From IMG/VR virus record IMGVR_UViG_3300038312_000168, positions 1 through 64,000 of that record: a stretch of DNA of 64,000 nt; one strand, 5' to 3'. The position numbers and the translations under genes are program-made. Source of the DNA: a virus. Shown in pieces: positions 455 to 53,123 of the stretch (its first letter is position 1; each line of letters starts with the position of its first letter). The notes beneath the pieces are model-generated. The model was not told where the DNA came from and did not search any database. It saw nothing but the letters and a program-made list of their open reading frames with translations.

Positions 455-592
455 CTACAATCAAAATATTACCCTATCTCTTTATATAGAAACATACAAA
501 TTCCAGACCTATCTCTGCTAGGATGAATAAATATACCACCGTGAAAAGTAGTGTCTGAAAAGTGATGTTTTACTCGAAGAATTGAGGAGATT
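455..592 (+). repeat. copy A of five-copy ~130-140 nt intergenic element
   Basis: Ordered blocks CTACAATCAAAA / CCAGACCTATCT / ATATACC / GATGTTTTACTCGAAGAATTGAGGAGATT shared with 2415-2545, 16510-16640, 50652-50788 and inverted 39839-39975; ends 8 nt from stop of 601..810(-); internal TTTATATA at 481-488. Confidence 0.8.
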
Positions 593-600
593 AAAAAAGG

Positions 601-810
601 TTACAGGTAGAGATGTTTATTCTGATTCTTGTAGACGTTCACAATCTTGTGTCCCTTGTCACTTTGCGAGTCTACATTAATCAGGTGCAGAAGATCCTCA
701 TAACTTACATAGAGTTTTTTGTTCTCTACGTTGATTTCAACAAACTCTTCACCGTTGATATATTTCTTACTCGCTTCTCCTACCTTTCTAAAATCAGCCA
801 AACTAAACAA
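601..810 (-). CDS. hypothetical protein (69 aa)
   Basis: ORF track; protein-like composition, but only a TTG start (no in-frame ATG) abutting AGAGG, so start is uncertain. Confidence 0.4.
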   Translation of the reverse strand: MFSLADFRKVGEASKKYINGEEFVEINVENKKLYVSYEDLLHLINVDSQSDKGHKIVNVYKNQNKHLYL

Positions 811-1867: not shown

Positions 1868-2414
1868 TACTCTTACTTTTTTAAAAAAACTTTAAAAAAA
1901 CTTTGACTTTCTGATGTGTTACCAGGAGAAAAAAAGGAGGATTAATGAGAATATTTATGAGTATCTTTAACTGTAACGATGTTATATTGTATTGGAATTA
2001 CACGAATTGACGCCAACCAAAACGTGTAATAAATCCCGAACCATGAGGAAGTGAGGCACAGCCGAATTCAAACGACAAGGAGATGCAATGACATTACGAA
2101 TCAGATTTTGTGTAATCACCTCGTAGAAAGTAGTAACATCACGGATGAACGTGTAAGAAAATTCATTGTAAGGAATTGCATGGTAAGTCATGTGAACGTT
2201 GTTCTCCGTGGTGTCCTATATCTTAAGTTGTTGCGTGAATATTTATACCTTTTGGTTTAGATACTTCTCTTACATTGAATGAAAGTTGATTTAATGTGTA
2301 AGGAAGTTATTTTGCGTTACGTGTGTCATTGTGTGTGACTATTTTCTTACGCGATACTTCTTACCCTGAATGTCATGTAGGAAACAGTAGCAGAAACCTA
2401 TGTGAGAACCCATG

Positions 2415-2545
2415 CCACAATCAAAAAAACATGCTGGAAACATGCAGTTTTGATAGGTTTTAGAGGTATAACTTGCAAAAAAGGTATAAACATACCACCG
2501 TGATAGTATAGTCGTTAATTTGCATGTTTTACTCGAAGGAAATCG
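2415..2545 (+). repeat. copy B (most diverged) of five-copy intergenic element
   Basis: CCACAATCAAAAAAAC ... AACATACCACCGTGA ... CATGTTTTACTCGAAGGAAATCG aligns block by block with copy A (AAATATACCACCGTGA ... GATGTTTTACTCGAAGAATTG). Confidence 0.65.
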
Positions 2546-2669
2546 CTTTGTTTTTCTAAACCCACAGAACTTGATTTGAATTTCAAAAACTCCCCAAATA
2601 CCCAAGAAAACGCCCAACTCGGTAAGCCACGCCACGCCTCTCCTTCTTCTCGGTGTCCATGTGTGTCCA

Positions 2670-3140
2670 CTATTGTTTATCTTTGTTCATCAATGCCCCT
2701 TTTTCGACATCAATGTATATATTTGAGCATTGATAACCAGGGATGTTCATTGATGCTAGTTTGTGGTATTTTCGCTCATATGAGTAAAAAACCATGAAAG
2801 GCATCATCTCAATAATGGGATAAAGTTTTGACTTTTTGAATACCTGGCCGTGCAACACATAACCATCTGGCCGTGCAACGTGACCGGTGATTATCACCGT
2901 ATCAGCATAGGGTAATGTGAATAACGCGCGATCATAAACGGTGATTATTCTATCCGTTTTTTGATTCGCATTCCCTTTGTTTTGTGTCTGTTTTTTTAAT
3001 CTCCATAGATTAGCCGTATTTTGTTGTTGGTTACACCCTTGTAGATTGCGTATAATCGACGATCTCACATCAGGTAGGGTAAAAGTATCACCTGTAAAAT
3101 TGATACGCTTAAAACGCTTATAATCAGGTGATAGTATCAT
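2670..3140 (-). CDS. hypothetical protein (156 aa)
   Basis: ORF track, ATG start at 3140; no recognisable motifs. Confidence 0.5.
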   Translation of the reverse strand: MILSPDYKRFKRINFTGDTFTLPDVRSSIIRNLQGCNQQQNTANLWRLKKQTQNKGNANQKTDRIITVYDRALFTLPYADTVIITGHVARPDGYVLHGQVFKKSKLYPIIEMMPFMVFYSYERKYHKLASMNIPGYQCSNIYIDVEKGALMNKDKQ

Positions 3141-7963: not shown

Positions 7964-7968
7964 GTTTA

Positions 7969-8005
7969 GGTTAAGTCAACTTCGGTTGCCTTAACCACTT
8001 TTTTT
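7969..8005 (+). terminator. hairpin plus T7 run ending the + strand small-gene array
   Basis: GGTTAAG-tCAAC-ttcg-GTTGc-CTTAACC nested stem (7969-7996) followed by T7 (7999-8005), 6 nt after stop of 7484..7963. Confidence 0.5.
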
Positions 8006-8032
8006 ATTCAATTTTGGTGTTGCTACGAAAGT

Positions 8033-8277
8033 GTTGATTAGTGTTACGGGATAATACTTTTCGCTTTGTGGTTGGATGTGGTTACGTGTGTTGATTTTAG
8101 TATCGTGAGTGTTACCAGAGCCACATAGCGTTGATTTGAGACAGTTTAGTATCAGGATGTAGTTTAGTATAGGGAGAAGGGAGATCGTCGATTAGAAGAA
8201 GCATGTTTCTAAGGGTATTTGGTTGATTGAGTTTTGATTTAGGTTTATTTTGGGAATTGTATAATTGTAGGGTTGAT
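8033..8277. repeat. cluster of GTTGAT(T) iteron-like repeats
   Basis: GTTGAT at 8033, 8090, 8130, 8222, 8272 and TTGATT at 8234; accompanied by GTGTTAC (x2) and GTTTAGTAT (x2) direct repeats; ORF-free region. Confidence 0.6.
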
Positions 8278-8500
8278 AATGTTAAATCATTATGGATAGT
8301 GGAAGTGCTACTGTGGTGTGGTAGTGGTGATTATGAGACATAGAGTCATTAATACTTTAAGGTTAATTTGGGTTTGGAATTGATACTAAAGTAGAATAAC
8401 TATCCTCACCTGTCATTACCCTGAACTCGCTATTCGATTTTCAGCATAATCATTTTTGTTATATATTTCTAACATTGTTCATATTAATCCGATCAATAAA

Positions 8501-8560
8501 TCTATATAGTTCTATAGAATCTATATAGTTCTCTATAGTGCTCTATAGGTCACTATAGTT
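8501..8560. repeat. six tandem ~10-bp units each carrying a CTATAG/CTATATAG palindrome
   Basis: tctatatagt|tctatagaat|ctatatagtt|ctctatagtg|ctctataggt|cactatagtt: helical-phase (10 bp) spacing. Confidence 0.75.
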
Positions 8561-9183
8561 ATTGTTAGGTTATCCCTAACTATCACCATATCACCAAACA
8601 TACATGATATCTCACGATATGTATGTTGCTTATCTATCATGATCTATCATGGTTCGAGTTGCGGTAAATGGATATTCCCCGCAATTATGAGGAGATTAGA
8701 GTATTCGACAAATAGTCGATAATCCTTTGAGTATATCGAATGGATACCGCATAGATACGCAATGACGATACCAACATAGCGTCATTATCGTATCACCCTT
8801 CAGACTGCATAGAAAACAGGGCATAATGAGCAGGGATTAGAACGCTATACAATGAGGGATTGATGATAGACACAAGCAAAAATGAGATCAAGTTAATTCA
8901 GTTTTACTTTTACTCTGTCATACCCATATCACTACCCTATGAGACGTACATAGTGCGTCTACAATGCGCGCACTCACCTAGATGATATGCGAGTATCCCT
9001 ATGCTGATATGTGACAGTATAGGGTTACTGTGTGGCTATGTTGTTACCATCTCATGTATGAGATAGACCACCATTATTCACCAATGTTTGTGACCATGTA
9101 TACCTATGTGCATTGATGAACATATGTGAGCATTGATGTATTGATTCGTACATCTACGAAAAGTAGAGACCGGGGGTGCGGTT

Positions 9184-9217
9184 AGACACCTTCGGTTAAG
9201 TGTCTCAAAAATTTTTT
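9184..9217 (+). terminator. hairpin plus T-run in ORF-free region (terminator-like)
   Basis: AGACAC-cttcggttaa-GTGTCT (9184-9205) followed by caaaaaTTTTTT (T6 at 9212-9217); preceded by a G+C-rich stretch GAGACCGGGGGTGCGG. Confidence 0.3.
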
Positions 9218-9319
9218 ATAAAAAAATAACTAAATCTGGGTAAAAACCCCTAAATAAACCTATTTCTCAAAAAAGAGTTAAAACCCATTACTTCTCTATT
9301 CTTCAAAATTGCAACACTA

Positions 9320-9454
9320 TCAACAATACTCATAACGCTCTGCACATTCTGGATTTGAACACCGATACATCTTCATAATATAAACTTCTGTACCAATTTT
9401 AAACCCTTTCTTACCACAATAAACAATCAATGAACCACAACGTGAGCAATACAC
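9320..9454 (-). CDS. small zinc-ribbon protein (44 aa, below track cutoff)
   Basis: Open frame directly downstream of 9488 gene; CSRC ... CSNPEC cysteine pairs; only a GTG start (9454), SD AGGTGG is ~16 nt upstream, so weak. Confidence 0.3.
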   Translation of the reverse strand: MYCSRCGSLIVYCGKKGFKIGTEVYIMKMYRCSNPECAERYEYC

Positions 9455-9487
9455 TTTCTTAATTGTAACACCACCTGATTATCATTT

Positions 9488-12800: not shown

Positions 12801-13316
12801 TTACAGATTCCACAAATTCACATGCCCCACAATTTCTGCATTTTCAAATATAATATCATTTCTATAATTGGTATAATATGTTACTTTACAAGATTTATCA
12901 TACCATCGAATATATACGTTTTCGTTTGATACAATTTCTATTAAACCTCTCATTTCATCACGCTCAATTACATCACCAACGCATAAATCCTTCACGTAGA
13001 CTTTCCTACACGGTTTGATTACAAGAGTCTCCCAATTAATAGGACCATTAAATGTCATTCTATATTTCCCTACATAACACGCAATAATAGGATGAAAAAC
13101 ACCACAGTTATGTGTTTCATCGTGATGATAGTCAACACCCACACTGTCAAGTTCATTATCAAGCAATTTACCATCACTCTTTAATGAAATAATAACTTCT
13201 TCAATCATAGTTTCTAATGAACCTTCGATTGTAATACTATTATCATAGACATATGATAATTTTTTAATAATCGCTTCTAATTCTTGATTTGTAAAGTAAA
13301 TATATTCCGATTTCAT
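12801..13316 (-). CDS. hypothetical protein (171 aa)
   Basis: ORF track, ATG start. Confidence 0.6.
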   Translation of the reverse strand: MKSEYIYFTNQELEAIIKKLSYVYDNSITIEGSLETMIEEVIISLKSDGKLLDNELDSVGVDYHHDETHNCGVFHPIIACYVGKYRMTFNGPINWETLVIKPCRKVYVKDLCVGDVIERDEMRGLIEIVSNENVYIRWYDKSCKVTYYTNYRNDIIFENAEIVGHVNLWNL

Positions 13317-15930: not shown

Positions 15931-16255
15931 GGAGTATTAATATCATTTTAAAAGGAGCGCGAAGCGCGATTGGCGGTAGTCGAGCGTCTCAACGCGAGCG
16001 TAACCGCTGTGACAAAAAAAAAGAAAAACCGGAAAAAAGAAAATGTAATATTGTGTGGCAACTTGCCCCACGGAGGACCCCTTACCCCTTATATTTGAAA
16101 CTCATAGTATATAAAGGTTTCGGTCCATGTTGATATTTTTGGAGTGTCATATATCTTATTAGATATAAAATATATATATAATTATTACTGATAGTAATAT
16201 TGGTAATGTGTATCATGCATTTTTACCTACATTTTTCATACGTGCCGCACTGGAA

Positions 16256-16513
16256 ATGAAGGTTGAAATGACAAAAAATAAGTATTCAGTAATCAAAGTA
16301 ATACGCATGGCAGAAATGTGTCAGTATGTCTTTACGTGCGTTAAGGATGGAATTGTCGAGTATCATTACCTGTATTGCGCTGATCTTCTCGAAGCGGTCA
16401 AGAAGCATGAGATGATTTATGGGTTTGAGTATCATGTGAGGAATGTTGAAGTTCAGGAGGGAAAATCACCCGATAGGTTTCAGTCTAAAATTGAGGATTA
16501 CATCATCTCCTAG
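16256..16513 (+). CDS. hypothetical protein (85 aa)
   Basis: Track start 16208 is GTG; first ATG 16256; stop TAG lies inside block 1 of repeat copy C. Confidence 0.45.
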   Translation: MKVEMTKNKYSVIKVIRMAEMCQYVFTCVKDGIVEYHYLYCADLLEAVKKHEMIYGFEYHVRNVEVQEGKSPDRFQSKIEDYIIS

Positions 16514-16640
16514 AATCAAAAAATTTACCCCTTTCTTTATATAGAAACATGCAAAATCCGACCCTATCTTTCAAAAATGGTATAATGATATGGTTGGAGA
16601 ATGTTGGTGTTTATTTTGCATGTTTTACTCTTCAATTTGG
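16510..16640 (+). repeat. copy C of five-copy intergenic element
   Basis: CTAGAATCAAAAAATTTACCCC / TTTATATAGAAACATGCAAAATCCGACCCTATCT / CATGTTTTACTC; lies between convergent genes 16256..16513(+) and 16654..16893(-). Confidence 0.75.
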
Positions 16641-16653
16641 GCTTATCCCAAAA

Positions 16654-16893
16654 CTACCATGAGAAGAGTGCAATGAGGAACCAAATGAAACCTGATAGTG
16701 CCTCACTTGCCGCACTCAACTTCATGTTCATGGTAGCAAATGTAATAGCGAGAGTGAAGAGTCCAATTGAAGTGAAGAGCGCGGTAAAAATGTTTACAGA
16801 ACCATTGTTGAAGATACAATCGTTCAGTTGAGGAAGAAGAGTAAACGAAAAAGAGAAACCAACGATACTAATGATTTTATCTTGCCATGTCAT
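16654..16893 (-). CDS. three-helix small membrane protein (79 aa), LPQ motif in first helix
   Basis: Three hydrophobic segments; ATG start; LLPQL in helix 1 is reminiscent of PQ-loop/SemiSWEET proteins (weak). Confidence 0.5.
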   Translation of the reverse strand: MTWQDKIISIVGFSFSFTLLPQLNDCIFNNGSVNIFTALFTSIGLFTLAITFATMNMKLSAASEALSGFIWFLIALFSW

Positions 16894-16905: not shown

Positions 16906-17042
16906 TTCTCCCGGCAGGACTCGAACCTGCATTACCGGATTTATTCAGAGTGTGACAGGTGTTACCGCCCGCTTCAGGTTAAATTGTGAGTTTTACCCAC
17001 ACTCTTTCAAATTCCGGCATGATACCATTACACTACGGGAGT
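16906..17042 (-). tRNA. tRNA-Gln: tRNA-Gln(UUG) with ~66-nt intron at position 37/38
   Basis: Minus-strand cloverleaf: T arm GCAGG-UUCGAGU-CCUGC, anticodon stem CCGGA/UCCGG split by an insert (about 16941-17006) with long helix GAGUGUG/CACACUC next to 3-nt bulges; loop AUUUGAA. Acceptor 6 bp plus an A1.A72 mismatch. Confidence 0.75.
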
Positions 17043-17044
17043 GA

Positions 17045-17117
17045 TGACAACGAAGGGATTTGAACCCTCACTTGACAGTTTTGGAGACTGCTGCACTTCC
17101 GATTATGCTACGTTGTC
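17045..17117 (-). tRNA. tRNA-Trp: tRNA-Trp(CCA)
   Basis: Acceptor GACAACG/CGUUGUC, D stem GCAU/GUGC, anticodon stem GCAGU/ACUGU with loop CUCCAAA, T arm GAGGG-UUCAAAU-CCCUU; no encoded CCA. Confidence 0.9.
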
Positions 17118-17120
17118 TAA

Positions 17121-17201
17121 TGTGTCAGACAGGGTTTGAACCTGTGATACCCTTCGGCAAAGGATTTTAAGTCCTCCGTGTTTCCGCTCCACCACTGACA
17201 C
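17121..17201 (-). tRNA. tRNA-Leu: tRNA-Leu(UAA), class II with long variable arm
   Basis: Acceptor GUGUCAG/CUGACAC, anticodon stem GAGGA/UCCUU with loop CUUAAAA, 14-nt variable arm, T arm ACAGG-UUCAAAC-CCUGU. Confidence 0.9.
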
Positions 17202-39265: not shown

Positions 39266-39820
39266 ATGAAATTTGATATAAAGAAATTTAAACTCTACTT
39301 CTTTACACTTTTATCTGCTGTGTTTGGAACACCTAAAGAAAGACCAATAAAAATTGATATTTACATTGAAGATAACATTGATCCGGAATTTGTAAAGAAC
39401 TCTCTTTACCTTATTCCTCAATTGTGGAAATTCAACTTCCTTACAGAAGCACCTAAGTATCGTGTAATGAATGGAGAATGGAAGGGATTTCTTATACCTG
39501 AAGCGGATAATACTGTTGTAATCTTCGATGGTAAGGCTCGTAATGCCAAATATGCAGGAGGTTGTGCAGGAAAGAGTGTTGGTGTAACAAAGAACACATG
39601 GGAAACAGATGAATTAGGATTTGGATTACGCATTTGGCATGAACTTCTCCATGCACAGAAGATTGATTCTGATGCAATGTTACGTAGTCCTGAATTTGAA
39701 GAATGGTTAGAATCACAGTTTAAATATATTCTTACCGAAAATAGAACTGCATACCAACATTCTATGCAGTTTCAGATACTTTTCTATAACTTCCTTACGC
39801 GGAAGTTTGTAAGGGGATAA
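39266..39820 (+). CDS. secreted/anchored HExxH zinc-metallopeptidase-like protein (184 aa)
   Basis: N-terminal hydrophobic signal/anchor (LYFFTLLSAVFG) and WHELLHAQ (HExxH); last gene of the late operon. Confidence 0.45.
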   Translation: MKFDIKKFKLYFFTLLSAVFGTPKERPIKIDIYIEDNIDPEFVKNSLYLIPQLWKFNFLTEAPKYRVMNGEWKGFLIPEADNTVVIFDGKARNAKYAGGCAGKSVGVTKNTWETDELGFGLRIWHELLHAQKIDSDAMLRSPEFEEWLESQFKYILTENRTAYQHSMQFQILFYNFLTRKFVRG

Positions 39821-39838
39821 ATCCTCTTACCTTTTTTA

Positions 39839-39975
39839 AATCTCTTCAATTCTTTGAGTAAAACATCACTTTTCGAGCATGATGTTTTGAAGAGGTATAT
39901 TTACTCATCTGAAAAAAGATAGGGTGCGGAAACATATAGTTTTGATATGTTTCAGGGGTAATATTTTGATTCTAG
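39839..39975 (-). repeat. copy E (inverted orientation) of five-copy intergenic element
   Basis: Reverse complement reads CTAGAATCAAAATATTACCCC ... CCGCACCCTATCT ... AAATATACC ... GATGTTTTACTCAAAGAATTGAAGAGATT; starts 18 nt after stop of 39266..39820(+); the other end contains the TAG stop (39972-39974) of the convergent gene. Confidence 0.8.
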
Positions 39976-40214
39976 TTTATGGTTACTCGACCATATGAAT
40001 CAAGAATAAATCCAAGATAAGAGTTAACATTACAACAAGTATCAATTTTACCTGACTGTTTATCAATGTTGCAAATGTTACTACATATCACATGGTTTCC
40101 ATTCTCATCCACAAGTTCAAGCGTAACAAATTTATCATTGTCTACAAGATTAAAGTAGACATTCTCAACCTTACTCTTTTCCGCGTCAAAGACGCCACAA
40201 ACCTTGTAATCCAT
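39972..40214 (-). CDS. hypothetical protein (80 aa)
   Basis: Track start 40289 is TTG; first ATG at 40214. Confidence 0.45.
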   Translation of the reverse strand: MDYKVCGVFDAEKSKVENVYFNLVDNDKFVTLELVDENGNHVICSNICNIDKQSGKIDTCCNVNSYLGFILDSYGRVTIN

Positions 40215-40309
40215 TTTCTTTACACCAAACCTATGTTGTATACAATTAGTTTTACGTTTGTCTATAAAAGGGTTTTGAAATTGATTCAACCTGAACTATT
40301 ATGCAAAAA

Positions 40310-43708: not shown

Positions 43709-43903
43709 TTACCAACATCCATAGTCTGTTAAATCGATACATTCACCACAATTTTCACATTCCGCTTTATGAACACAACCAATTCCTGTTCCAATAATGT
43801 GTAAGTGAATCGTTAATTCATATTTATTATCATCAAAACAACGCTCATGTCGAGCGATAAACTGATTGAGTTGTGCAAGTTCATTTTCGTTTAGTTCTAA
43901 CAT
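43709..43903 (-). CDS. hypothetical Cys-rich protein (64 aa)
   Basis: ATG 43903 in TAATG overlap with RNR stop (track start is GTG); C-terminal CENCGEC..C. Confidence 0.5.
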   Translation of the reverse strand: MLELNENELAQLNQFIARHERCFDDNKYELTIHLHIIGTGIGCVHKAECENCGECIDLTDYGCW

Positions 43904-46900
43904 TATCCGCACCTACTGTATCCACACGCACAAGTCTTACAACCTTCAACCATACTTAAATGTTCACCACATTCAGGACAGATATTTGATTCAGTCTTTA
44001 TTTCTTCCTTACATGGAATAGAAATTGGTTCTGATTCTTTATCAGGAATCAGACTTTCAATTACTCGACCGATAACATCCGAGCATGATTTTCCATCACA
44101 ATTACCTTCAGAGAATTTCTTGTAAGCGACAGGACAAGTAACATTACGTAAAGTCTTGATTATATCCCAGGTAGGAACATTCCAACGCATTGAAAGAGAA
44201 ATCATCTGTCCCAATGCATCATTCATAGCGGTGCAACCACCTTTGTTGTTTATAATGCATTCATAGGGTTTACCATCTTTTTCTGCAACGGAAATGATAA
44301 GTTTACCACAACCTGAACGTCTCTTACTATTTGTAGCGGGAAGATCAGATGGGCGCTTAGGTAGGATTCTACCATCGGGGAGTGGTGTTGTAGGGGTGGA
44401 ATCTTTCTTGAGTTCCATTACAATATCATCTCTGCTACCTGTTACATAAATGGTAACTCCCTTACATCCTTTCTCATAAGCGTAAAGAATAGCACTTCTA
44501 ATATCGTCTTTAGTAGCGCCTGGAGGCATGTTAATTGTCTTACTGATTGCAGCATGACAATACTGTTGAAACGCTGCCTGCATGTCAATGTGTGACTTCC
44601 AATCGATGTCAAGAGCCGTCTTGAACACAGATTTAAACTCTTTAGGCAACCATGTAATATCTTGAATAGTCCCTGTTTCGTAAGCATGATTGATTACTTC
44701 CTGCTTCTTTTTGTCCCATTGTGAAACCTCAACATGTGATTCAATGTAATTATTCAGTTTTTCTTCAAAGACTGGATCAACCATCAGGTATCCTTTCTTT
44801 TTACCATCTACCCATGTATACCGCTTGTGAACCAGGGAATAAACAGGTTCAATACCATATGAGGTTTCAGAGAGTGTTGCAATACTTCCAGTGGGTGCTA
44901 TACATGTTGTAGTTGCATTACGTATGGGTATATCATGTAGGAACCAATCAGAACCTTCATATGCTGGAAATACACCAAGTTCTTTTGCAAGTTCTCTTGA
45001 TGTTAGAACAGACATATCATTAAGAATGCCCATAACCTTTTTTGCCTGATACAGTGCATCAGAACTATCGTAAGGAATACCCATCTTCATTAGCATGTGA
45101 TGGAATCCCATGTAACCTAATCCAATCTTACGAGTCTTTCTACTCGCTTCTGCAATCTCTTCAATAGGATATTTGTTAAGATCAATAATCTTATCAAGAA
45201 ACTCTGTTGAAAGTTCAATGGTATTTATTAAATCATTTTGCATTAATCCATTATTATTAACAAAGTTAGATAAATTTATACTGCCTAGATTACATGATTC
45301 GCCTGGTAATAGTGGTTGCTCTCCGCAGTTAGAGGCCAATATGCCGTTGAAAATGCCAGTATGGTTCTTAGGCTCGTTGAAACAGTAAACCTTGTCTACA
45401 ATTTCATTGTTCCGTTCAATAGATACAATTTTAATAAACCTTTTTGCATCTCTTTTATTAGTTGTTACAGTGGGGACTCTATATGTTTTAAACCCAAGAT
45501 CAACCAATTTTTTAACATTAGATGCAGGAATTGTAAGTCTATAACAATCAAGACAATAATATTCTTTTTGACCACCATTACCATCGGGCATTAATTTATA
45601 ATCAGATTTTTTCATCAAATTAACAGAAGTATTAATACCAAGTGTATCAAGCATATATTTTACATCCATTAAAAAATCTCTTTTAACAGATGAAATAGCG
45701 ATACTACCTTCACTTGTATTTTTACATCCATCACTGTCAACAATTCCTGCTAACCATTCTAATCTTGATTTAATTGTATATGAACAATTAGGAACAAACA
45801 ATTTTTCATAATCACCCTGTAATGTAACAAGAATTCTATCGTGATCATCACTTTGATTATAATTAACACGTTTTGCATTTAAATATTCTACTAAATCTTT
45901 TTTAATTCCATATAAATATATATACTTTATACCATTTGATTGACATTTATAACCATCACCACTAAAGAAACCATGTGTATATGCAAATTCAAGTTCTTTT
46001 TTACCCTCAATAACGGGGTAATCACACTTGATAAGTTTGTCACCTACTACTAAATCCTTTGCTTCTTTTTTAACAATTTTATTTTTATTACCTTTATAAC
46101 CATATTGTAAAACAAACTTATGATAAGGAGTACATTTTACTTTGTTACCATCACTGAATGTTACTTCCATAACCTCTTGATCGTATCCAGTAACACACGG
46201 AGTAACAACACTCCATTCAAACCCATTCCAGATAGTTGTTTCTTTATCTACACACTCATCAATGCGCTTATATCCTTCATTGGTAAGAATGAGTGTTTCA
46301 CCAACCAAACACGGATTGGTTGCTTCAATATTACCAAGATGTTTGCAAGTATTATCATCATTAATTGTATTGTAGAATAATACCCCTGGTTCACCTGTCT
46401 TGGAAATTCCATCTACAATCTTATCAAAAACTTCTTTCGCTCTGATTGTTTTGTAAACTTTACCATCGAAGTGAAGATTATACTCTTTATCATTCTTTAC
46501 AGCACTAATAAATTCATCATCAATCATTACAGAAATATTGAAGTTAGAAAGATCACCTTCAGTATTCTTACACGCAATGAACTTCTCAATATCTGGATGC
46601 CAAACAGGGAGAACACCCATATTCGCACCCCTTCTTTTAGATCCCTGAACCACAGCACCAGTAGCAGCATTAAACACTTTCATGAAAGAAATGGGGCCTG
46701 ATGCAACACCATCTGTTCCATTTACTTTGTCACCTTCAGGTCGAAGATTACCAAAGGAAAATCCTGTTCCACCTGCTGCCTTATGAATTAATGCGGCATT
46801 TTTAATTGCATCAAAAATACTTTCCATTGAATCATTTACAGGAATTACAAAACATGCAGAAAGTTGTCCTATTTCCGTTCCTGCATTCATAAGTGTAGGC

Positions 46901-47064
46901 GAATTAGGCACAAAATCTTTATTCACCATCATATCATAGTAAATCTCTCGTTCATCGTCCGTATTTCCTACATAGTCTGCAACTCTTCTACAGACATCTT
47001 CCCAGGACGATTCACCTTCACGGAAATAACGAGCAGCAAGAACTTCATTAACAATGTCACTCAT
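43903..47064 (-). CDS. nrdJ: class II (B12-dependent type) ribonucleotide reductase interrupted by an intein (1053 aa precursor)
   Basis: PNSPTLMNAG, LSACFV, GGTGFSFG.LRP, ASGPISFM, KRRGA, ...ATNP[C-intein-N]CGEQPL..ESCNLGSINL; C-terminal Zn-ribbon CPECG...CKTCACG. Confidence 0.9.
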   Translation of the reverse strand: MSDIVNEVLAARYFREGESSWEDVCRRVADYVGNTDDEREIYYDMMVNKDFVPNSPTLMNAGTEIGQLSACFVIPVNDSMESIFDAIKNAALIHKAAGGTGFSFGNLRPEGDKVNGTDGVASGPISFMKVFNAATGAVVQGSKRRGANMGVLPVWHPDIEKFIACKNTEGDLSNFNISVMIDDEFISAVKNDKEYNLHFDGKVYKTIRAKEVFDKIVDGISKTGEPGVLFYNTINDDNTCKHLGNIEATNPCLVGETLILTNEGYKRIDECVDKETTIWNGFEWSVVTPCVTGYDQEVMEVTFSDGNKVKCTPYHKFVLQYGYKGNKNKIVKKEAKDLVVGDKLIKCDYPVIEGKKELEFAYTHGFFSGDGYKCQSNGIKYIYLYGIKKDLVEYLNAKRVNYNQSDDHDRILVTLQGDYEKLFVPNCSYTIKSRLEWLAGIVDSDGCKNTSEGSIAISSVKRDFLMDVKYMLDTLGINTSVNLMKKSDYKLMPDGNGGQKEYYCLDCYRLTIPASNVKKLVDLGFKTYRVPTVTTNKRDAKRFIKIVSIERNNEIVDKVYCFNEPKNHTGIFNGILASNCGEQPLLPGESCNLGSINLSNFVNNNGLMQNDLINTIELSTEFLDKIIDLNKYPIEEIAEASRKTRKIGLGYMGFHHMLMKMGIPYDSSDALYQAKKVMGILNDMSVLTSRELAKELGVFPAYEGSDWFLHDIPIRNATTTCIAPTGSIATLSETSYGIEPVYSLVHKRYTWVDGKKKGYLMVDPVFEEKLNNYIESHVEVSQWDKKKQEVINHAYETGTIQDITWLPKEFKSVFKTALDIDWKSHIDMQAAFQQYCHAAISKTINMPPGATKDDIRSAILYAYEKGCKGVTIYVTGSRDDIVMELKKDSTPTTPLPDGRILPKRPSDLPATNSKRRSGCGKLIISVAEKDGKPYECIINNKGGCTAMNDALGQMISLSMRWNVPTWDIIKTLRNVTCPVAYKKFSEGNCDGKSCSDVIGRVIESLIPDKESEPISIPCKEEIKTESNICPECGEHLSMVEGCKTCACGYSRCG
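45328..46311 (-). mobile_element. intein (328 aa) with LAGLIDADG homing endonuclease domain in the RNR NPCGEQ active-site loop
   Basis: Begins Cys (CLVGETLIL; codon at 46309-46311), ends ...GILASN (45328-45330) followed by +1 Cys of CGEQ; two dodecapeptide motifs YTHGFFSGDGY and LEWLAGIVDSDGC. Confidence 0.9.
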
Positions 47065-49664: not shown

Positions 49665-50555
49665 TTAAACACCTTCAATCTGAATATCCCTGATTCTCTG
49701 TTGATAATACTGGAAAATGTTTCTAGGTGCACAACAATTATGTTTCTTACATTCTTCATTAATATATTGCGCAACTAACGGCATTGCAACTTTAATATCA
49801 GTAAAGTCATTACCAATGTCTGTTCTTACCTTTTCTATTGCACCGTAAATTTCAGAATCAGGTAATGTAGGTAACTGAATCTTACCTATTTCTTCCATTC
49901 TAGGTATCTTTTCCAGAGAAGGAAGATCCTGTTTCTCTTTGAAATAAACAATACCCCTCTTAGTTCCTGCACCTTCACCACAATTCCAGGGCAATTCAGC
50001 CCAAACTTTACCTACAACACCCTCCATGCTGTTTTCTTTCGCCTTTGTAATCATCTCATCTTTAAATTCATACAGAGATTCAATTGTAGAAACATTGCAC
50101 GTTCCATACAATTCTACAACCGGAATATCAAAGTGATAACAGGTCTGATACACTTTGTTATAATGAAGGAATCTGTTTTGTTTTGCGCTCCAAATATCAA
50201 ACACTACAAAATCATAATCCTCATGCATCTCAATACGTGTAGGTGAACGTCCTTTCATTAACATTTCACCAAAAACAACTAATTCATCACCATAATCACG
50301 CTCATTTAGAATCATGTCACGGATTGCATCAACATGGGATGTCTGATTGAATCCACTGTAAAACATATCAGAGGCATTTGCTAGATTCCTACTGCGTAAA
50401 TGAATGTTATTTTCATCATTTAAACAGATTCCAAGGCAGGAACCATCTCTTTTTACTTGAAAAAAGATTTCCTGACCCAAAAGAATCTCAGGGTTAGGTT
50501 TCAGATTCGCAATCCTTTCAAGTTCTGGATACTTGATCTTGTCTATCTCAATCAT
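49665..50555 (-). CDS. ATP-dependent polynucleotide ligase, RNA-ligase-like motif I (296 aa)
   Basis: Nucleotidyltransferase motifs QVKRDGSC (I, KxDGS without the DNA-ligase Arg), VVFGEM (III), FVVFDI (IV), EGVVGK ... YFKEK (V). Confidence 0.6.
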   Translation of the reverse strand: MIEIDKIKYPELERIANLKPNPEILLGQEIFFQVKRDGSCLGICLNDENNIHLRSRNLANASDMFYSGFNQTSHVDAIRDMILNERDYGDELVVFGEMLMKGRSPTRIEMHEDYDFVVFDIWSAKQNRFLHYNKVYQTCYHFDIPVVELYGTCNVSTIESLYEFKDEMITKAKENSMEGVVGKVWAELPWNCGEGAGTKRGIVYFKEKQDLPSLEKIPRMEEIGKIQLPTLPDSEIYGAIEKVRTDIGNDFTDIKVAMPLVAQYINEECKKHNCCAPRNIFQYYQQRIRDIQIEGV

Positions 50556-50651: not shown

Positions 50652-50788
50652 CTACAATCAAAAAATCATACCGGAATCATATCGTTTTCGTATGTTTCCA
50701 GACCCTATCTTTCTTTGGACGGGTGTTTATACCTTTGAAAAAGATAGGTGTCAGAAATGCACGTTTTACTCAAAGAATTGAAGAGATT
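50652..50788 (+). repeat. copy D of five-copy intergenic element
   Basis: CTACAATCAAAAAATC ... CCAGACCCTATCT ... TTTATACC ... CACGTTTTACTCAAAGAATTGAAGAGATT; ends 10 nt from polB stop; contains hairpin CCTATCTTT/AAAGATAGG. Confidence 0.8.
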
Positions 50789-50798
50789 TTATATTCCT

Positions 50799-53123
50799 CT
50801 ACCAGAAACGTTCTATTCCGTCTAATTCGTGTATATTCCATCCCATGCTCAAGAATATGTAATTGAACTTCTCACGTATCAACTTCTCTTCCATGCGCGC
50901 ATAATCTATAACGAATCCTTCAGGTATTGGTTGTTCATCGGTGAATGATATTGCATGTGTCTTAGGCAGTCCTGGTGGAACATCTTTAACATAGATATAT
51001 TTCATCTTCTCCATTTTGATATTACCATTGCAGTATTTATTGAAATAAATTGCACCATGAATGTGAATAGGCATGTTGGAAGTATATTCGTGAAAATCCT
51101 TTGATACACCTTTTGGAATACCTATTTCATAAGGAGAATAAACACCTGCAATGATCTTGTCCCTTACTTCTTTCACTAATGGAAATATCTCTTCCTTACC
51201 CTTTCCGGTAAGAATCATCTTGAATACATTACTTTGTAACTCTCTGATTACGGTAGGTGTATCACTACGCTTTGCCTCAAATCCTTTGATTTCAAGTTTG
51301 GGATGGTCGGATATATCAGCACCATCCTTGTAGACAATTAGACCGGCATAACGCTTCTTTACCGCATTGTCATATTCATCGCCTACAAAGAATACATTGC
51401 CATAAATCTTTTCAAATTCAATGAACATTTTGTTATAGGTTGAATCACCAAATTCTGATTCACAAAAGTAATCAAGTGAGTTATTAATGTAATCGATTAT
51501 TTCAATGCCCTCATCAATTACGTCCTTAGCATCCTCCTTTTTCAATTTAAACAGAATAGCGTCGGTGTCCCCGCCCACAATCTCATGTTCTCTTTCCTTT
51601 ACCTTTTCCTGCATCCACAAATTAGTTCTCCGTCCAAAGTAAGTAATAGATTTACCAATATCTCTTGTAAACAACCTGAAATGAGGAGCAAGCATCACTC
51701 CATACACTGAATTGAGTAGGAACTTACAAACAGTCTGAATAGTATCCCACATCTCGTAATCATGAGAACCAAGTTCAAATGTGTCACGCTTATTTTTAAA
51801 CTTTTGTCGCAAGTTCCAAAGATCCTCAACAACACGCGGAATGAAACCGCGCTTGTCTAAACTAAAGTAAACATCATCAACGGTAACATAATTGTTACAT
51901 TTTGTTACATCGGTAACAATCGTTTCTGGTGACATATTACACGTAAGAATCGCTGTAGGATACAAAGAGCGCACATCACCTACTGCTACATTCTGATGGA
52001 CTCCTACGGTTGGTGTAATGACAATAGCACCTGTAATCTTTGTGTAATCCTTCTGCTTACGAGTAGTGGGTAAGACAATACCATACTCCTTCGCCTTGAG
52101 TAAAAAGAAACAATCAAGCACCTTACTGTTGTAGAATACATCATACCAACTGCAAAAGGTAAAGCGACGAATAGTATCAAAATATTTGACAATGCCCTTT
52201 GACTCTTCGATCTTTACCATGAGGTAGACATCTTTGATATTATACTCGATGAACTTGTCAAGATTATTGCGCCAAAAGTCCTCAAACTTCTCTTGATGTT
52301 CAATTTTACCTGCACCCAATTCATAACGTGATATATAATCCAGGGAGTATGATTCCATTTCTTGTGTAGACAGTTTCTTGTAGCACACCATTAAATCTAA
52401 CCAAATCCTACAGCGCGGTTTGTCTACAATGTCACCATAACCCTTACCCATCTGTTTAATGGGAGACAACAAACGTGGATTAATCTTCAACGCTTTCATA
52501 CGATTAAATAGGTAAGGATAATCAAATCTATCACCATTCCAGGCAAGGAATAAATCAAAATCAAGTTGTTGCACCAATGCAAGGAATTTATTAAGCATTT
52601 CCTTTTCGGTAACAAACATAAAAACACGCGCTTCAACTTCATTACCATCGAATTGAATCTTACGAGTGTATTTGTCCTTACTGACTACTCCATCAGGTGC
52701 AACCGTAAAACAATAATAGAGATTACGGAAGTTGTCATAGGCAGCAATGGAAGTAATCATAGTGTCTGCCTTCGAGATATTGGGTATTCCATCCGTCTCA
52801 ATATCAAAAAAACATACCCTAATCACCTCACTTTCAATACCTTTCTGGTAGTAATTATCAATCAGGTATCTAATAGTAGGGGGCACATCACCTTCATACG
52901 TAAATTCATGCAGTTTTCTCGATGATTTGAAGTCCTTTTGATTAACGCATGTAATACGCTGTAATGTCTCTCCAAACAGAGAGTAGTAGGTTTCTCCTAC
53001 AATGTTCTGTCGAGGCACATAAAAATAGGGTTGAAAGCGATTGATACGTTGCTCATAACGCTCACCGTGTTCATCTCGACCACGAATGATAATAGAATCC
53101 CCTATTGACTCGGTTATAATCAT
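50799..53123 (-). CDS. polB: family B DNA polymerase (774 aa)
   Basis: Exo I FFDIETD, Exo II NGDRFDYPYL, Exo III YNIKDVYL; Pol A DVRSLYPTAI, Pol B KFLLNSVYG, Pol C GGDTDA, KKRYAG. Confidence 0.95.
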   Translation of the reverse strand: MIITESIGDSIIIRGRDEHGERYEQRINRFQPYFYVPRQNIVGETYYSLFGETLQRITCVNQKDFKSSRKLHEFTYEGDVPPTIRYLIDNYYQKGIESEVIRVCFFDIETDGIPNISKADTMITSIAAYDNFRNLYYCFTVAPDGVVSKDKYTRKIQFDGNEVEARVFMFVTEKEMLNKFLALVQQLDFDLFLAWNGDRFDYPYLFNRMKALKINPRLLSPIKQMGKGYGDIVDKPRCRIWLDLMVCYKKLSTQEMESYSLDYISRYELGAGKIEHQEKFEDFWRNNLDKFIEYNIKDVYLMVKIEESKGIVKYFDTIRRFTFCSWYDVFYNSKVLDCFFLLKAKEYGIVLPTTRKQKDYTKITGAIVITPTVGVHQNVAVGDVRSLYPTAILTCNMSPETIVTDVTKCNNYVTVDDVYFSLDKRGFIPRVVEDLWNLRQKFKNKRDTFELGSHDYEMWDTIQTVCKFLLNSVYGVMLAPHFRLFTRDIGKSITYFGRRTNLWMQEKVKEREHEIVGGDTDAILFKLKKEDAKDVIDEGIEIIDYINNSLDYFCESEFGDSTYNKMFIEFEKIYGNVFFVGDEYDNAVKKRYAGLIVYKDGADISDHPKLEIKGFEAKRSDTPTVIRELQSNVFKMILTGKGKEEIFPLVKEVRDKIIAGVYSPYEIGIPKGVSKDFHEYTSNMPIHIHGAIYFNKYCNGNIKMEKMKYIYVKDVPPGLPKTHAISFTDEQPIPEGFVIDYARMEEKLIREKFNYIFLSMGWNIHELDGIERFW

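Follow-up and report, generated by a model that had tools for sequence, protein, structure and literature searches.

A recurrent non-coding module at gene ends of a tailed virus, shared with small integrating elements: a possible boundary cassette of archaeal transcription units

The stretch of DNA analyzed here comprises positions 1 to 64,000 of the IMG/VR virus record IMGVR_UViG_3300038312_000168 (64,000 nt, hereafter the window), and the subject of this work is a non-coding module of 125-140 bp which recurs in it five times. The complete genome of the virus assembles circularly, as a circle of 69,251 bp, and because the 5.25 kb beyond the window hold no further copy, the genome total is exactly five. 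The virus is a tailed virus, and the window codes for a family B polymerase (polB), a clamp loader, a ribonucleotide reductase with an intein, a thymidylate synthase and an RNA ligase, as well as for a Mu F-like head protein and a long tail module. Among named relatives, the polymerase of Halorubrum tailed virus 25 comes closest to polB, at 28% identity. An archaeal host is pointed to by several features, namely a 66-nt intron in the anticodon loop of one of three clustered tRNA genes, the position of TTTATAAA at 23-30 nt ahead of the ATG at 1217, as in leaderless archaeal genes, and the GGTGA ribosome-binding site which precedes the RNA ligase gene. The relatives of the virus originate from anaerobic digester and fermentation metagenomes, and the host is therefore probably a methanogen.

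The five copies, designated A to E, lie where a previous sequence-only reading had placed them and in the same orientations (Table 1); once oriented, they align across about 140 columns. The two invariant ends which they share are unlike each other, with C.A.AATCAAAA.A at one end (its first bases following the pattern C[TC]A[CG]AATCAAAA) and GTTTTACTC at the other, and the gap from AATCAAAA to GTTTTACTC measures 99-100 nt in all five. With up to one mismatch, ATGTTTTACTC is matched five times in the 64 kb, always at a copy, and CTACAATCAAAA nine times as against 1.15 expected, a count which none of 100 shuffles reaches; five of these nine matches are the copies themselves. Single copies used as nhmmer queries recover one another, most strongly for the pairs B-C (1e-11 to 6e-14), E-C (3e-10) and E-B (6e-6), and more weakly for E-D (3e-5), A-B (1e-3) and A-E (8e-3), with pairwise identities of 58-71% and copy A as the most divergent. 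The block counts, the fixed spacing and this cross-recovery thus place the similarity of the copies well above the AT-rich background, on which the earlier proposal had been made to depend. The three 29-mers singled out in that proposal are indeed identical at 25-27 of 29 positions. Its list of shared blocks needs two corrections: in copy A, GGTATAACTT stands in place of the ACCCTATCT block, and in copy D, ATATGG stands in place of ATACC.

Table 1. Coordinates of the element copies and of other features in the window and in related contigs
Feature	Position	Strand	Remarks
Copy E	455..592	+	Block 1 CTACAATCAAAA at 455-466; GTTTTACTC at 567-575, then class-1 tail GAAGAATTGAGGAGATT
Consensus archaeal TATA box TTTATATA, within copy E	481..488	+	
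Copy A	2415..2558	+	Block 1 CCACAATCAAAA at 2415-2426; GTTTTACTC at 2526-2534
Copy D	16510..16640	+	Convergent junction; TTTATATA at 16536-16543; GTTTTACTC at 16622-16630
Copy C (inverted)	39839..39975	-	Convergent junction, structural block versus replication block
Copy B	50652..50788	+	Between co-directional polB (50799..53123, -) and RNA ligase gene (49665..50555, -)
Non-coding regions rich in CCTTACRYGTAAGG-type palindromes	1-454 and 1868-2414		The first extends about 274 nt past the window start (L166:2815-3543)
Stretch poor in open reading frames (ORFs)	7964-9487		1.5 kb without an ORF of at least 50 aa
tRNA cluster	16906-17201	-	Trp(cca), Leu(taa) and a third gene with a 66-nt intron
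Ribonucleotide reductase	43903-47064	-	Intein with LAGLIDADG endonuclease
D5-like primase-helicase	L081:499-2016		
Integrase candidates	L081:2659-3966, L075:1766-2599, L112:5066-6439		Weak tyrosine/SSV-type matches
Type G carriers	L081, L075, L112, L106, L100, L052, L140, L042		Contigs of 1.4-7.9 kb, GC 38-43%, one type G copy

In the window, all five copies follow the end of a gene in a single orientation and stand at the ends of transcription units, as had been proposed. The distance from the GTTTTACTC end to the adjacent stop codon is 8 nt in copy E, 10 nt in B, 13 nt in D, 18 nt in C and 124 nt in A, values which agree with the gaps of 8-18 nt and about 125 nt given previously. Copy E thus abuts the stop of 601..810 (-), with its opposite end facing about 730 nt of non-coding DNA, and copy A precedes the stop of 2670..3140 (-), with 550 nt of non-coding DNA at its opposite end and a class-2 tail, GAAGGAAATCGCTTTGTTTTTCTA, which closes with a T5 run on the + strand. 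Copies D and C lie at convergent junctions, and in each of them CTAGAATC contains the TAG stop of the gene at that end, 16208..16513 (+) and 39972..40289 (-) respectively, as had been noted before; the genes stopping at their other ends are 16654..16893 (-) and 39266..39820 (+). Immediately after the structural block comes a T6 run (39833-39838), and copy C itself contains a perfect 9-bp hairpin (39929-39953). Copy B, next to the stop of polB, contains a hairpin at 50673-50699; on the gene strand, the 97 nt after the element hold a T6 run, a TATA-like CATAAATA and the GGTGA site, followed by the ATG of the ligase. The two consensus TATA boxes described earlier, in copies E and D, are both present. 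The one in copy E is flanked by ACCCTATCTC (471-480), with a second GACCTATCTC (506-515) at the expected start-site distance, and the matching segment is in other alleles either a hairpin or neither hairpin nor TATA box. As regards stop codons, five of the seven genes which flank copies end in TAG (2670..3140, 16208..16513, 16654..16893, 39972..40289 and 50799..53123), compared with 11 of 86 ORFs overall and about 4 among some 77 other credible ORFs, two probably spurious ones being set aside; two of the five flanking TAG stops are the element's own CTAG.

Further copies were sought in viral and metagenome contigs by an exact two-block pattern, which allowed only 96-103 nt of spacing, and then by an nhmmer profile. 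In related contigs of both kinds, 122 full copies (91 distinct) were recovered, forming nine clusters which were grouped into seven types, A-G. Types A-E are orthologues of the five positions of the window, type F occupies a sixth position, and type G resides in small integrase-encoding elements, the DNA of which is unrelated to the virus. The element is found at the equivalent gene ends of relatives, since for 51 of the 53 distinct contexts of types B-F the stop of a converging ORF is located 5-35 nt away from GTTTTACTC, the distance in type A being about 135 nt. The type F locus carries two extra small genes (71 aa, and a membrane-type product of 74 aa) together with its copy in relatives such as L005 (L005:6168-6725), whereas the window has at this locus (13162-13313) only 150 nt of a differently fused gene with another N-terminal part. 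Compared with relative L021, both 20-nt ends are about 100% identical and the interior 40-70% (71.5% for the element overall), while third positions of polB are 70% identical; the interior drifts at or above the synonymous rate. The length of the element remains constant even though more than a third of the positions differ between paralogues, a constancy which the spacing of the search pattern partly forces and with which the window copies and the profile-only copies agree. A coding role was rejected, in line with the earlier statement, because short ORFs over block 1 occur in different frames among orthologues. One relative retains a copy E without its first 15 nt, i.e., block 1, with unrelated sequence instead (L162:1911-2036), and a copy can therefore persist without that end. 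A 9,168-nt metagenome contig (L057) is palindromic, window positions 2832->133 being joined head-to-head to 133->2832, such that it holds copies A and E twice each, either as an assembly artefact or as a real inverted duplication.

The type G copies occur in a different setting, that of divergent intergenic regions, upstream of a promoter and not after a gene. They end in a T-run, and a consensus TATA box (TTTAAATA or TTTTATAA) follows about 45-60 nt on; beyond it lies a co-directional gene, encoding either the integrase candidate itself or a 166-aa product and, in the latter case, preceding an integrase. The rule that the element always abuts a gene 3' end thus holds in the tailed virus and fails for the family, in view of this placement. 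In contig L112, a tRNA-Thr gene (562-633) lies beside an apparent truncated N-terminal piece of an integrase, the ORF of which overlaps the tRNA gene and begins in a manner resembling the full-length integrase candidate of L081, an arrangement which suggests that L112 represents an integrated copy of the small element. For the gene beside the integrated type G copy, no named relatives were found. Upstream of the element, L112 and L075 have in common some 250 nt of conserved non-coding DNA and an AT-rich stretch.

Across the family, runs of at least four A on the + strand, which correspond to U-runs on the gene strand, are conserved at columns 9-14 (90-100%), 89-94 (about 70%) and 105-110 (50-60%), the last gene-strand U-run being UUUU(UU)GAUU at the far end. 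The other strand carries a universal GTTTTAC (GUUUUAC), to which types A and G add a run of T5-T8. The feature of archaeal intrinsic terminators, an oligo-T run on the transcribed strand past a stop codon, is accordingly present. Folds of single copies, on both strands, have z values of -0.7 to -2.7 and differ from copy to copy. RNAalifold yields no consensus pair and no covariation on either strand, with 21 or with 91 sequences; the consensus folds of individual types are weak and mutually inconsistent, and in folding energy neither strand is consistently better, the types disagreeing among themselves. Rfam 15 reports only the three tRNAs at the gathering threshold, and the best match in E-value mode is snoR21 (E = 4.1, 23 bits versus a cut-off of 45). 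The structured small-RNA family that had been offered as one candidate is therefore not sustained, and structured RNA was rejected as an explanation for the family at large. The Bw, Bl, C1 and F alleles possess a clear hairpin in the 5' half (z -2.2 to -6.8), but seven other alleles fold there no better than shuffled sequences; a consensus TATA box takes the place of the hairpin in types D and E and in some of type C. Two further RNA candidates were dropped: a C/D-box small RNA, considered from the weak snoR21 match and GATGA/CTGA in copy E, the boxes of which are not kept in other types or orthologues, and a bulge-helix-bulge splicing motif joining the two ends, for which only A4:U4 pairing is possible.

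These results bear on whether the element may be a stand-alone small RNA gene of about 100-130 nt, with its ends acting as start and stop signals and its interior as a specificity region, carried by the mobile elements of one host, e.g., for host takeover or for conflict between elements. In such a case one would understand the conserved ends, variable interior and constant length, the solitary location in divergent intergenic regions of the small elements with a T-run right after the GTTTTACTC tail, the tail-to-tail arrangement with neighbouring genes in the virus, the TTAAATAG found about 18-25 nt before block 1 in L075, and the A-rich TATA-like runs located, on the gene strand of copies B, C and E, ahead of the class-1 tail. 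Yet conserved structure and covariation are missing on both strands, no Rfam family is matched, no upstream TATA box is consistent across types in either orientation, and block 1 overlaps the stop codon of the converging gene in copies C and D, so that we regard a small RNA gene as unlikely.

The conservation of sequence blocks and length, rather than of pairing, is also what would be expected of a double-stranded DNA site, at which a protein of the virus or of the host would bind the blocks at columns 1-12, 52-61, 78-83 and 113-121, e.g., in organising, replicating or partitioning the genome or in recombination. ATCAAAA recurs within the 5' half in either orientation, type G lies beside an AT-rich stretch and near a gene for a replication-type protein, and the long non-coding regions faced by copies E and A abound in CCTTACRYGTAAGG palindromes. 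These palindrome-rich regions each face the CTACAATC end of their copy; TTACACGTGTAA, at up to two mismatches, has 17 matches in the window versus 3.8 expected, and a regulator of the virus probably uses the CCTTACRYGTAAGG-type palindromes as its operators. Just beyond the window start there is a GC-rich hairpin. The ORF-poor stretch at 7964-9487 contains ctatag-type iterons (8500-8560) and gttgatt/tttagta repeats and coincides with a switch of gene strand and of GC skew, and on account of these features it is probably the replication origin. It is flanked by ordinary terminators composed of a hairpin and a T-run (T7), at 7966-8005 and about 9178-9215, and is the sole convergent junction without a copy, the other three of the four having one. 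The lack of a copy at the probable origin speaks against a DNA site, as does the strict orientation to the abutting gene (5/5 in the window; 51/53 in relatives), which such a site would not lead one to expect. With no candidate binding protein identified, a DNA site of this kind is doubtful.

Exchange between copies is evident from their mosaic composition. In type G, four different 5' halves (A-like, B-like, C-like and its own) are joined to one 3' half, and three of them are near-identical to those of virus types A, Bl and C. The 12-nt variants just before GTTTTACTC (GAAAAGTGATG, AAAATAATGCTG and TTTTGCATG) are common to paralogues in one genome and unlike between orthologues, and at the C position TATA-type and hairpin-type 5' halves alternate. 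Such patterns indicate gene conversion or recombination among copies, including those of the virus and of the small elements; both must therefore meet in one cell. The claim that the element marks changes of gene content is upheld as well by breakpoints which coincide with the GTTTTACTC edge or lie no more than about 36 nt from it. Relative L060 lacks 39266..39820, the join falling directly after GTTTTACTCAAAG, and L120 and L067 lack 16654..16893 and a tRNA. With the last gene deleted in these three, the element persists at the unit end and abuts the new last gene, which may even be a tRNA. In L134, 240 extra nt are present at 601-607. Past a shared GTTTTACTCTTCAAATTA, the neighbours of type F are of two kinds, an ATTTA-type box being retained in both some 10 nt on, and downstream of type G either of two genes occurs. 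The RNA ligase gene is a clean indel among close relatives (absent in L020, L022 and L065), with its breakpoint 93 nt from copy B. It is followed by a kinase-like P-loop gene, which suggests an RNA-repair pair.

Another reading is that of a selfish, non-autonomous repeat without function for the virus, which would have spread by recombination or by an unknown transposase and would survive only at the least harmful sites, downstream of genes. The confinement of the element to one narrow clade of viruses (polB at least 88% identical), its absence from the next relatives, its presence in unrelated mobile elements of the same habitats and the evolution of its interior at or above the synonymous rate would all fit such an origin. 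Both ends, however, are under strong purifying selection, and the same five positions are kept in relatives with 70-90% third-position identity, with no empty site seen. No transposase lies nearby in the window, terminal inverted repeats are lacking, and target duplications are not consistent. On these grounds a selfish repeat is considered improbable. The suggestion of a MITE, a miniature transposable element with inverted repeats, was likewise abandoned: the ends of copies E, B and C have no inverted match of at least 7 nt, copies A and D have only an internal AAACATGCA/TGCATGTTT inverted pair, and orthologues do not retain the direct repeats flanking B (7 nt) and A (6 nt). Type F varies in its presence only along with neighbouring genes. 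Several other identities were tried and set aside. Ends of the IS200/IS605 type (TTAC / TCAA motifs) were dropped as over-reading, the sub-terminal hairpins not being conserved, and an integron attC-like site was excluded since the element is not palindromic and has no core sites. The repetitive extragenic palindrome or bacterial interspersed mosaic element (REP/BIME), a palindrome of about 35 nt with a GTAG end and a REP-associated tyrosine transposase (RAYT), likewise does not match this non-palindromic element, the reverse-strand self-match of which is marginal (E ~0.006). Block 1 (CTAC) lies 20 nt from any hairpin, and no Y1 transposase was found among the window ORFs scanned, which were part of all ORFs.

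The small elements encode an integrase and a D5-like primase-helicase, as known phage satellites do, and they have recombined with the copies of the virus, from which it could be proposed that the module is a packaging recognition site borrowed by them as satellites of the tailed virus; the circular assembly of the virus genome would be expected for headful packaging. A pac or cos site in five dispersed copies would be without precedent, though, and no copy lies by the terminase genes, which renders packaging highly improbable. Still less credit is given to the notion that the 3' tail, GTTTTACTCAAAGAATTGAAGAG, is a solitary mimic of a repeat of CRISPR (short palindromic repeats, clustered and regularly interspaced), serving as an RNA decoy for host Cas proteins, although we take this tail to resemble the unstructured archaeal repeats ending in ATTGAAG or ATTGAAAG. 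A scan for the exact 21-mer, with two positions degenerate, in one genome for each of 185,579 species gave two single chance matches and no array, the matches being in one Pseudomonadales and one Bacteroidetes metagenome-assembled genome; nor did the viral contigs contain arrays carrying the 3' tail. The AAAGAATTGAAGAG tail is restricted to types B, C and E, those of A/G and D/F being different, only GTTTTACTC is universal, and the conserved unit of about 120 nt is not repeat-sized. A CRISPR mini-array was also rejected, no arrays having been found. A broader proposal is that of a trans-acting module of mobile elements, with halves that can be exchanged, which would be either a small RNA or a DNA site recruiting a protein rather than a simple termination signal. 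Five copies of it would be kept by a methanogen tailed virus, and it would be shared with unrelated small integrase/primase-helicase elements of the same host, in order to serve an interaction common to them, either with the host or with one another, e.g., as a decoy against host defence, in the hijacking of a host factor or in a helper-satellite relation; this, too, seems rather improbable as a whole. The confidence which remains beyond the readings weighed in this work belongs to something not considered.

The interpretation which we prefer, tentatively, is that of a recombining regulatory boundary cassette, which would act at the ends of archaeal transcription units by means of U-tracts and sequence motifs. 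The termination or 3'-processing role suggested at the outset thus stays the best guess, one that we infer from position and U-tracts only. Oligo-U (oligo-T in the DNA) is the archaeal intrinsic termination signal. A polymerase exiting the upstream gene would read GAGUAAAAC ... UUUU(UU)GAUU[G/C]U[A/G]G and meet the three conserved U-tracts, and these U-runs may stop the archaeal RNA polymerase in both directions. Given the U-tracts on the gene strand and GUUUUAC with the T5-T8 runs on the other, the cassette would insulate neighbouring or convergent units from read-through both ways. The blocks other than U and their fixed spacing probably serve as sequence, and not as a fold, in binding a protein or in aiding 3'-end formation. 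Where a co-directional unit follows, as at copy B and at type F in L005, a TATA-like box and the gene start lie just past the element, i.e., the promoter is located outside it. The location of type G, with its terminal T-run just upstream of the TATA box of the integrase operon, fits an insulator, and the cassette may there protect the promoter of the integrase against transcription from upstream. Owing to its repetition, the cassette undergoes recombination among its own copies and with those of co-resident integrating elements, which homogenises segments, swaps halves and allows the gain, loss or replacement of adjacent accessory genes at the cassette edge.

Several points weigh against a boundary cassette. 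Viruses whose polB shows 50-58% identity contain no copy by nhmmer (E > 0.3), nor does an analogous repeat occur in the 22 kb examined, and the more distant relatives L148-L151 yielded neither homologous nor analogous repeats; the polymerase gene runs directly into the next gene in two of the three lineages examined. The family is therefore confined to the narrow clade and the small elements, and since these relatives lack it, the cassette is dispensable for this virus family. Archaeal termination needs only oligo-T, which leaves the conserved non-T blocks and the 99-100 nt spacing unexplained, and in copies C and E a T6 run is already present between the stop codon and the element. The fourth convergent junction makes do with plain hairpin and T7 terminators, no gene reads into either end of type G, and a universal terminator hairpin in the 5' half had to be rejected, as it beats shuffles in only 4 of 11 alleles. 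Finally, all of the steps at the level of RNA are inferred. In light of these weaknesses, the boundary cassette is put forward as a serious possibility rather than as a probable conclusion.

Some additional features of the genome and its relatives deserve mention. For the third gene of the tRNA cluster, ARAGORN places the intron at 34/35, resulting in the anticodon tta (an ochre suppressor), while the canonical splice at 37/38 would give TTG (Gln); the cluster region as a whole varies among relatives. Apart from the intein of the ribonucleotide reductase, a polB intein is present in some relatives (P0002, P0009), and the large terminase, just outside the window (L166:5322-7844), has a faint LAGLIDADG match. 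At window positions 40162-40182, within 39972..40289 or beside it, the sequence of many relatives is longer by 215-465 nt, and a 20-nt overlap of two alignment blocks, which bounds this indel, suggests that it lies between short direct repeats. The replication module of two more distant relatives (polB 49% identical) includes a TnpB gene (OrfB_IS605 / Cas12f-like; L150/L151:18675-19727, - strand).

Next to nothing is known on the organisation of transcription or on gene exchange in methanogen viruses, and no description of the element was found in the literature searched. The extension of the family to small elements and the mosaic exchange of copies are the most interesting points of this work, as the sharing and recombination of a module between a 69-kb tailed virus and small integrating elements constitute direct sequence evidence of their meeting in one host, and the module could link the small elements and the virus to each other and to that host. 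If the proposed function is true, the cassette would also offer a testable handle on archaeal termination signals beyond the bare oligo-T run. Among known repeats, REP/BIME, enterobacterial repetitive intergenic consensus (ERIC) and Correia sequences are multi-copy and non-coding and lie mostly downstream of genes or between convergent genes, and they can serve as terminators or mRNA stabilisers and as recombination substrates. The element is likewise multi-copy, non-coding and placed downstream of genes or at convergent junctions, yet those repeats of bacterial chromosomes are imperfect palindromes or have inverted ends, some with a dedicated transposase, whereas the element, in an archaeal virus and integrating elements, is non-palindromic with unlike ends. 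With conserved runs of T4-T6 shortly after stop codons on the transcribed strand, it recalls the archaeal oligo-T terminator, which needs neither a 120-nt unit nor fixed spacing nor conserved non-T blocks. With solitary CRISPR repeats, or RNA anti-CRISPRs, it shares a repeat-like tail in viral non-coding DNA; it differs in that no matching array was found, the tail is missing in several types and the unit is four times the length of a repeat. It resembles the MITEs shared by viruses and hosts (PMC11602168) in being a small non-coding intergenic repeat in more than one kind of replicon, and differs from them in lacking terminal inverted repeats, target-site duplications and any sign of recent transposition. 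Both these MITEs and the REP/BIME-type repeats are looser analogies than the motif considered next.

The nearest concept is that of the PeSLs (promoter-early stem-loops) of T4-type phages, repeated promoter and stem-loop motifs which begin where the upstream gene has its stop codon. They cluster near variable genes, are found flanking the gene of the DNA polymerase, act as transcription terminators and bring about modular shuffling (PMC2839356; PMC4122927). A motif of haloarchaeal virus HGTV-1, consisting of a TATA box and an inverted repeat, has been likened to PeSLs (as cited in PMC3950731). The element is similarly intergenic, begins at the upstream stop codon (5-35 nt, 51/53 contexts) and stands beside variable accessory genes and even the DNA polymerase gene, and recombination between its copies shuffles gene cassettes. 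PeSL functions have been shown experimentally, whereas the element is known here from its sequence. In addition, a PeSL consists of a stem-loop terminator and a defined promoter which immediately precede the ribosome-binding site of the next gene, while the element is about twice as long, has unlike ends and no universal stem-loop, lies at convergent junctions in three of its five copies, is without a downstream gene in three of the five, and contains no promoter reading into a downstream gene, the downstream promoters lying outside it. The element may thus work like such cassettes without being one of them, and if its copies are both insulators at unit ends and recombination sites, they would represent an archaeal counterpart of the PeSL cassettes of T4-type phages.

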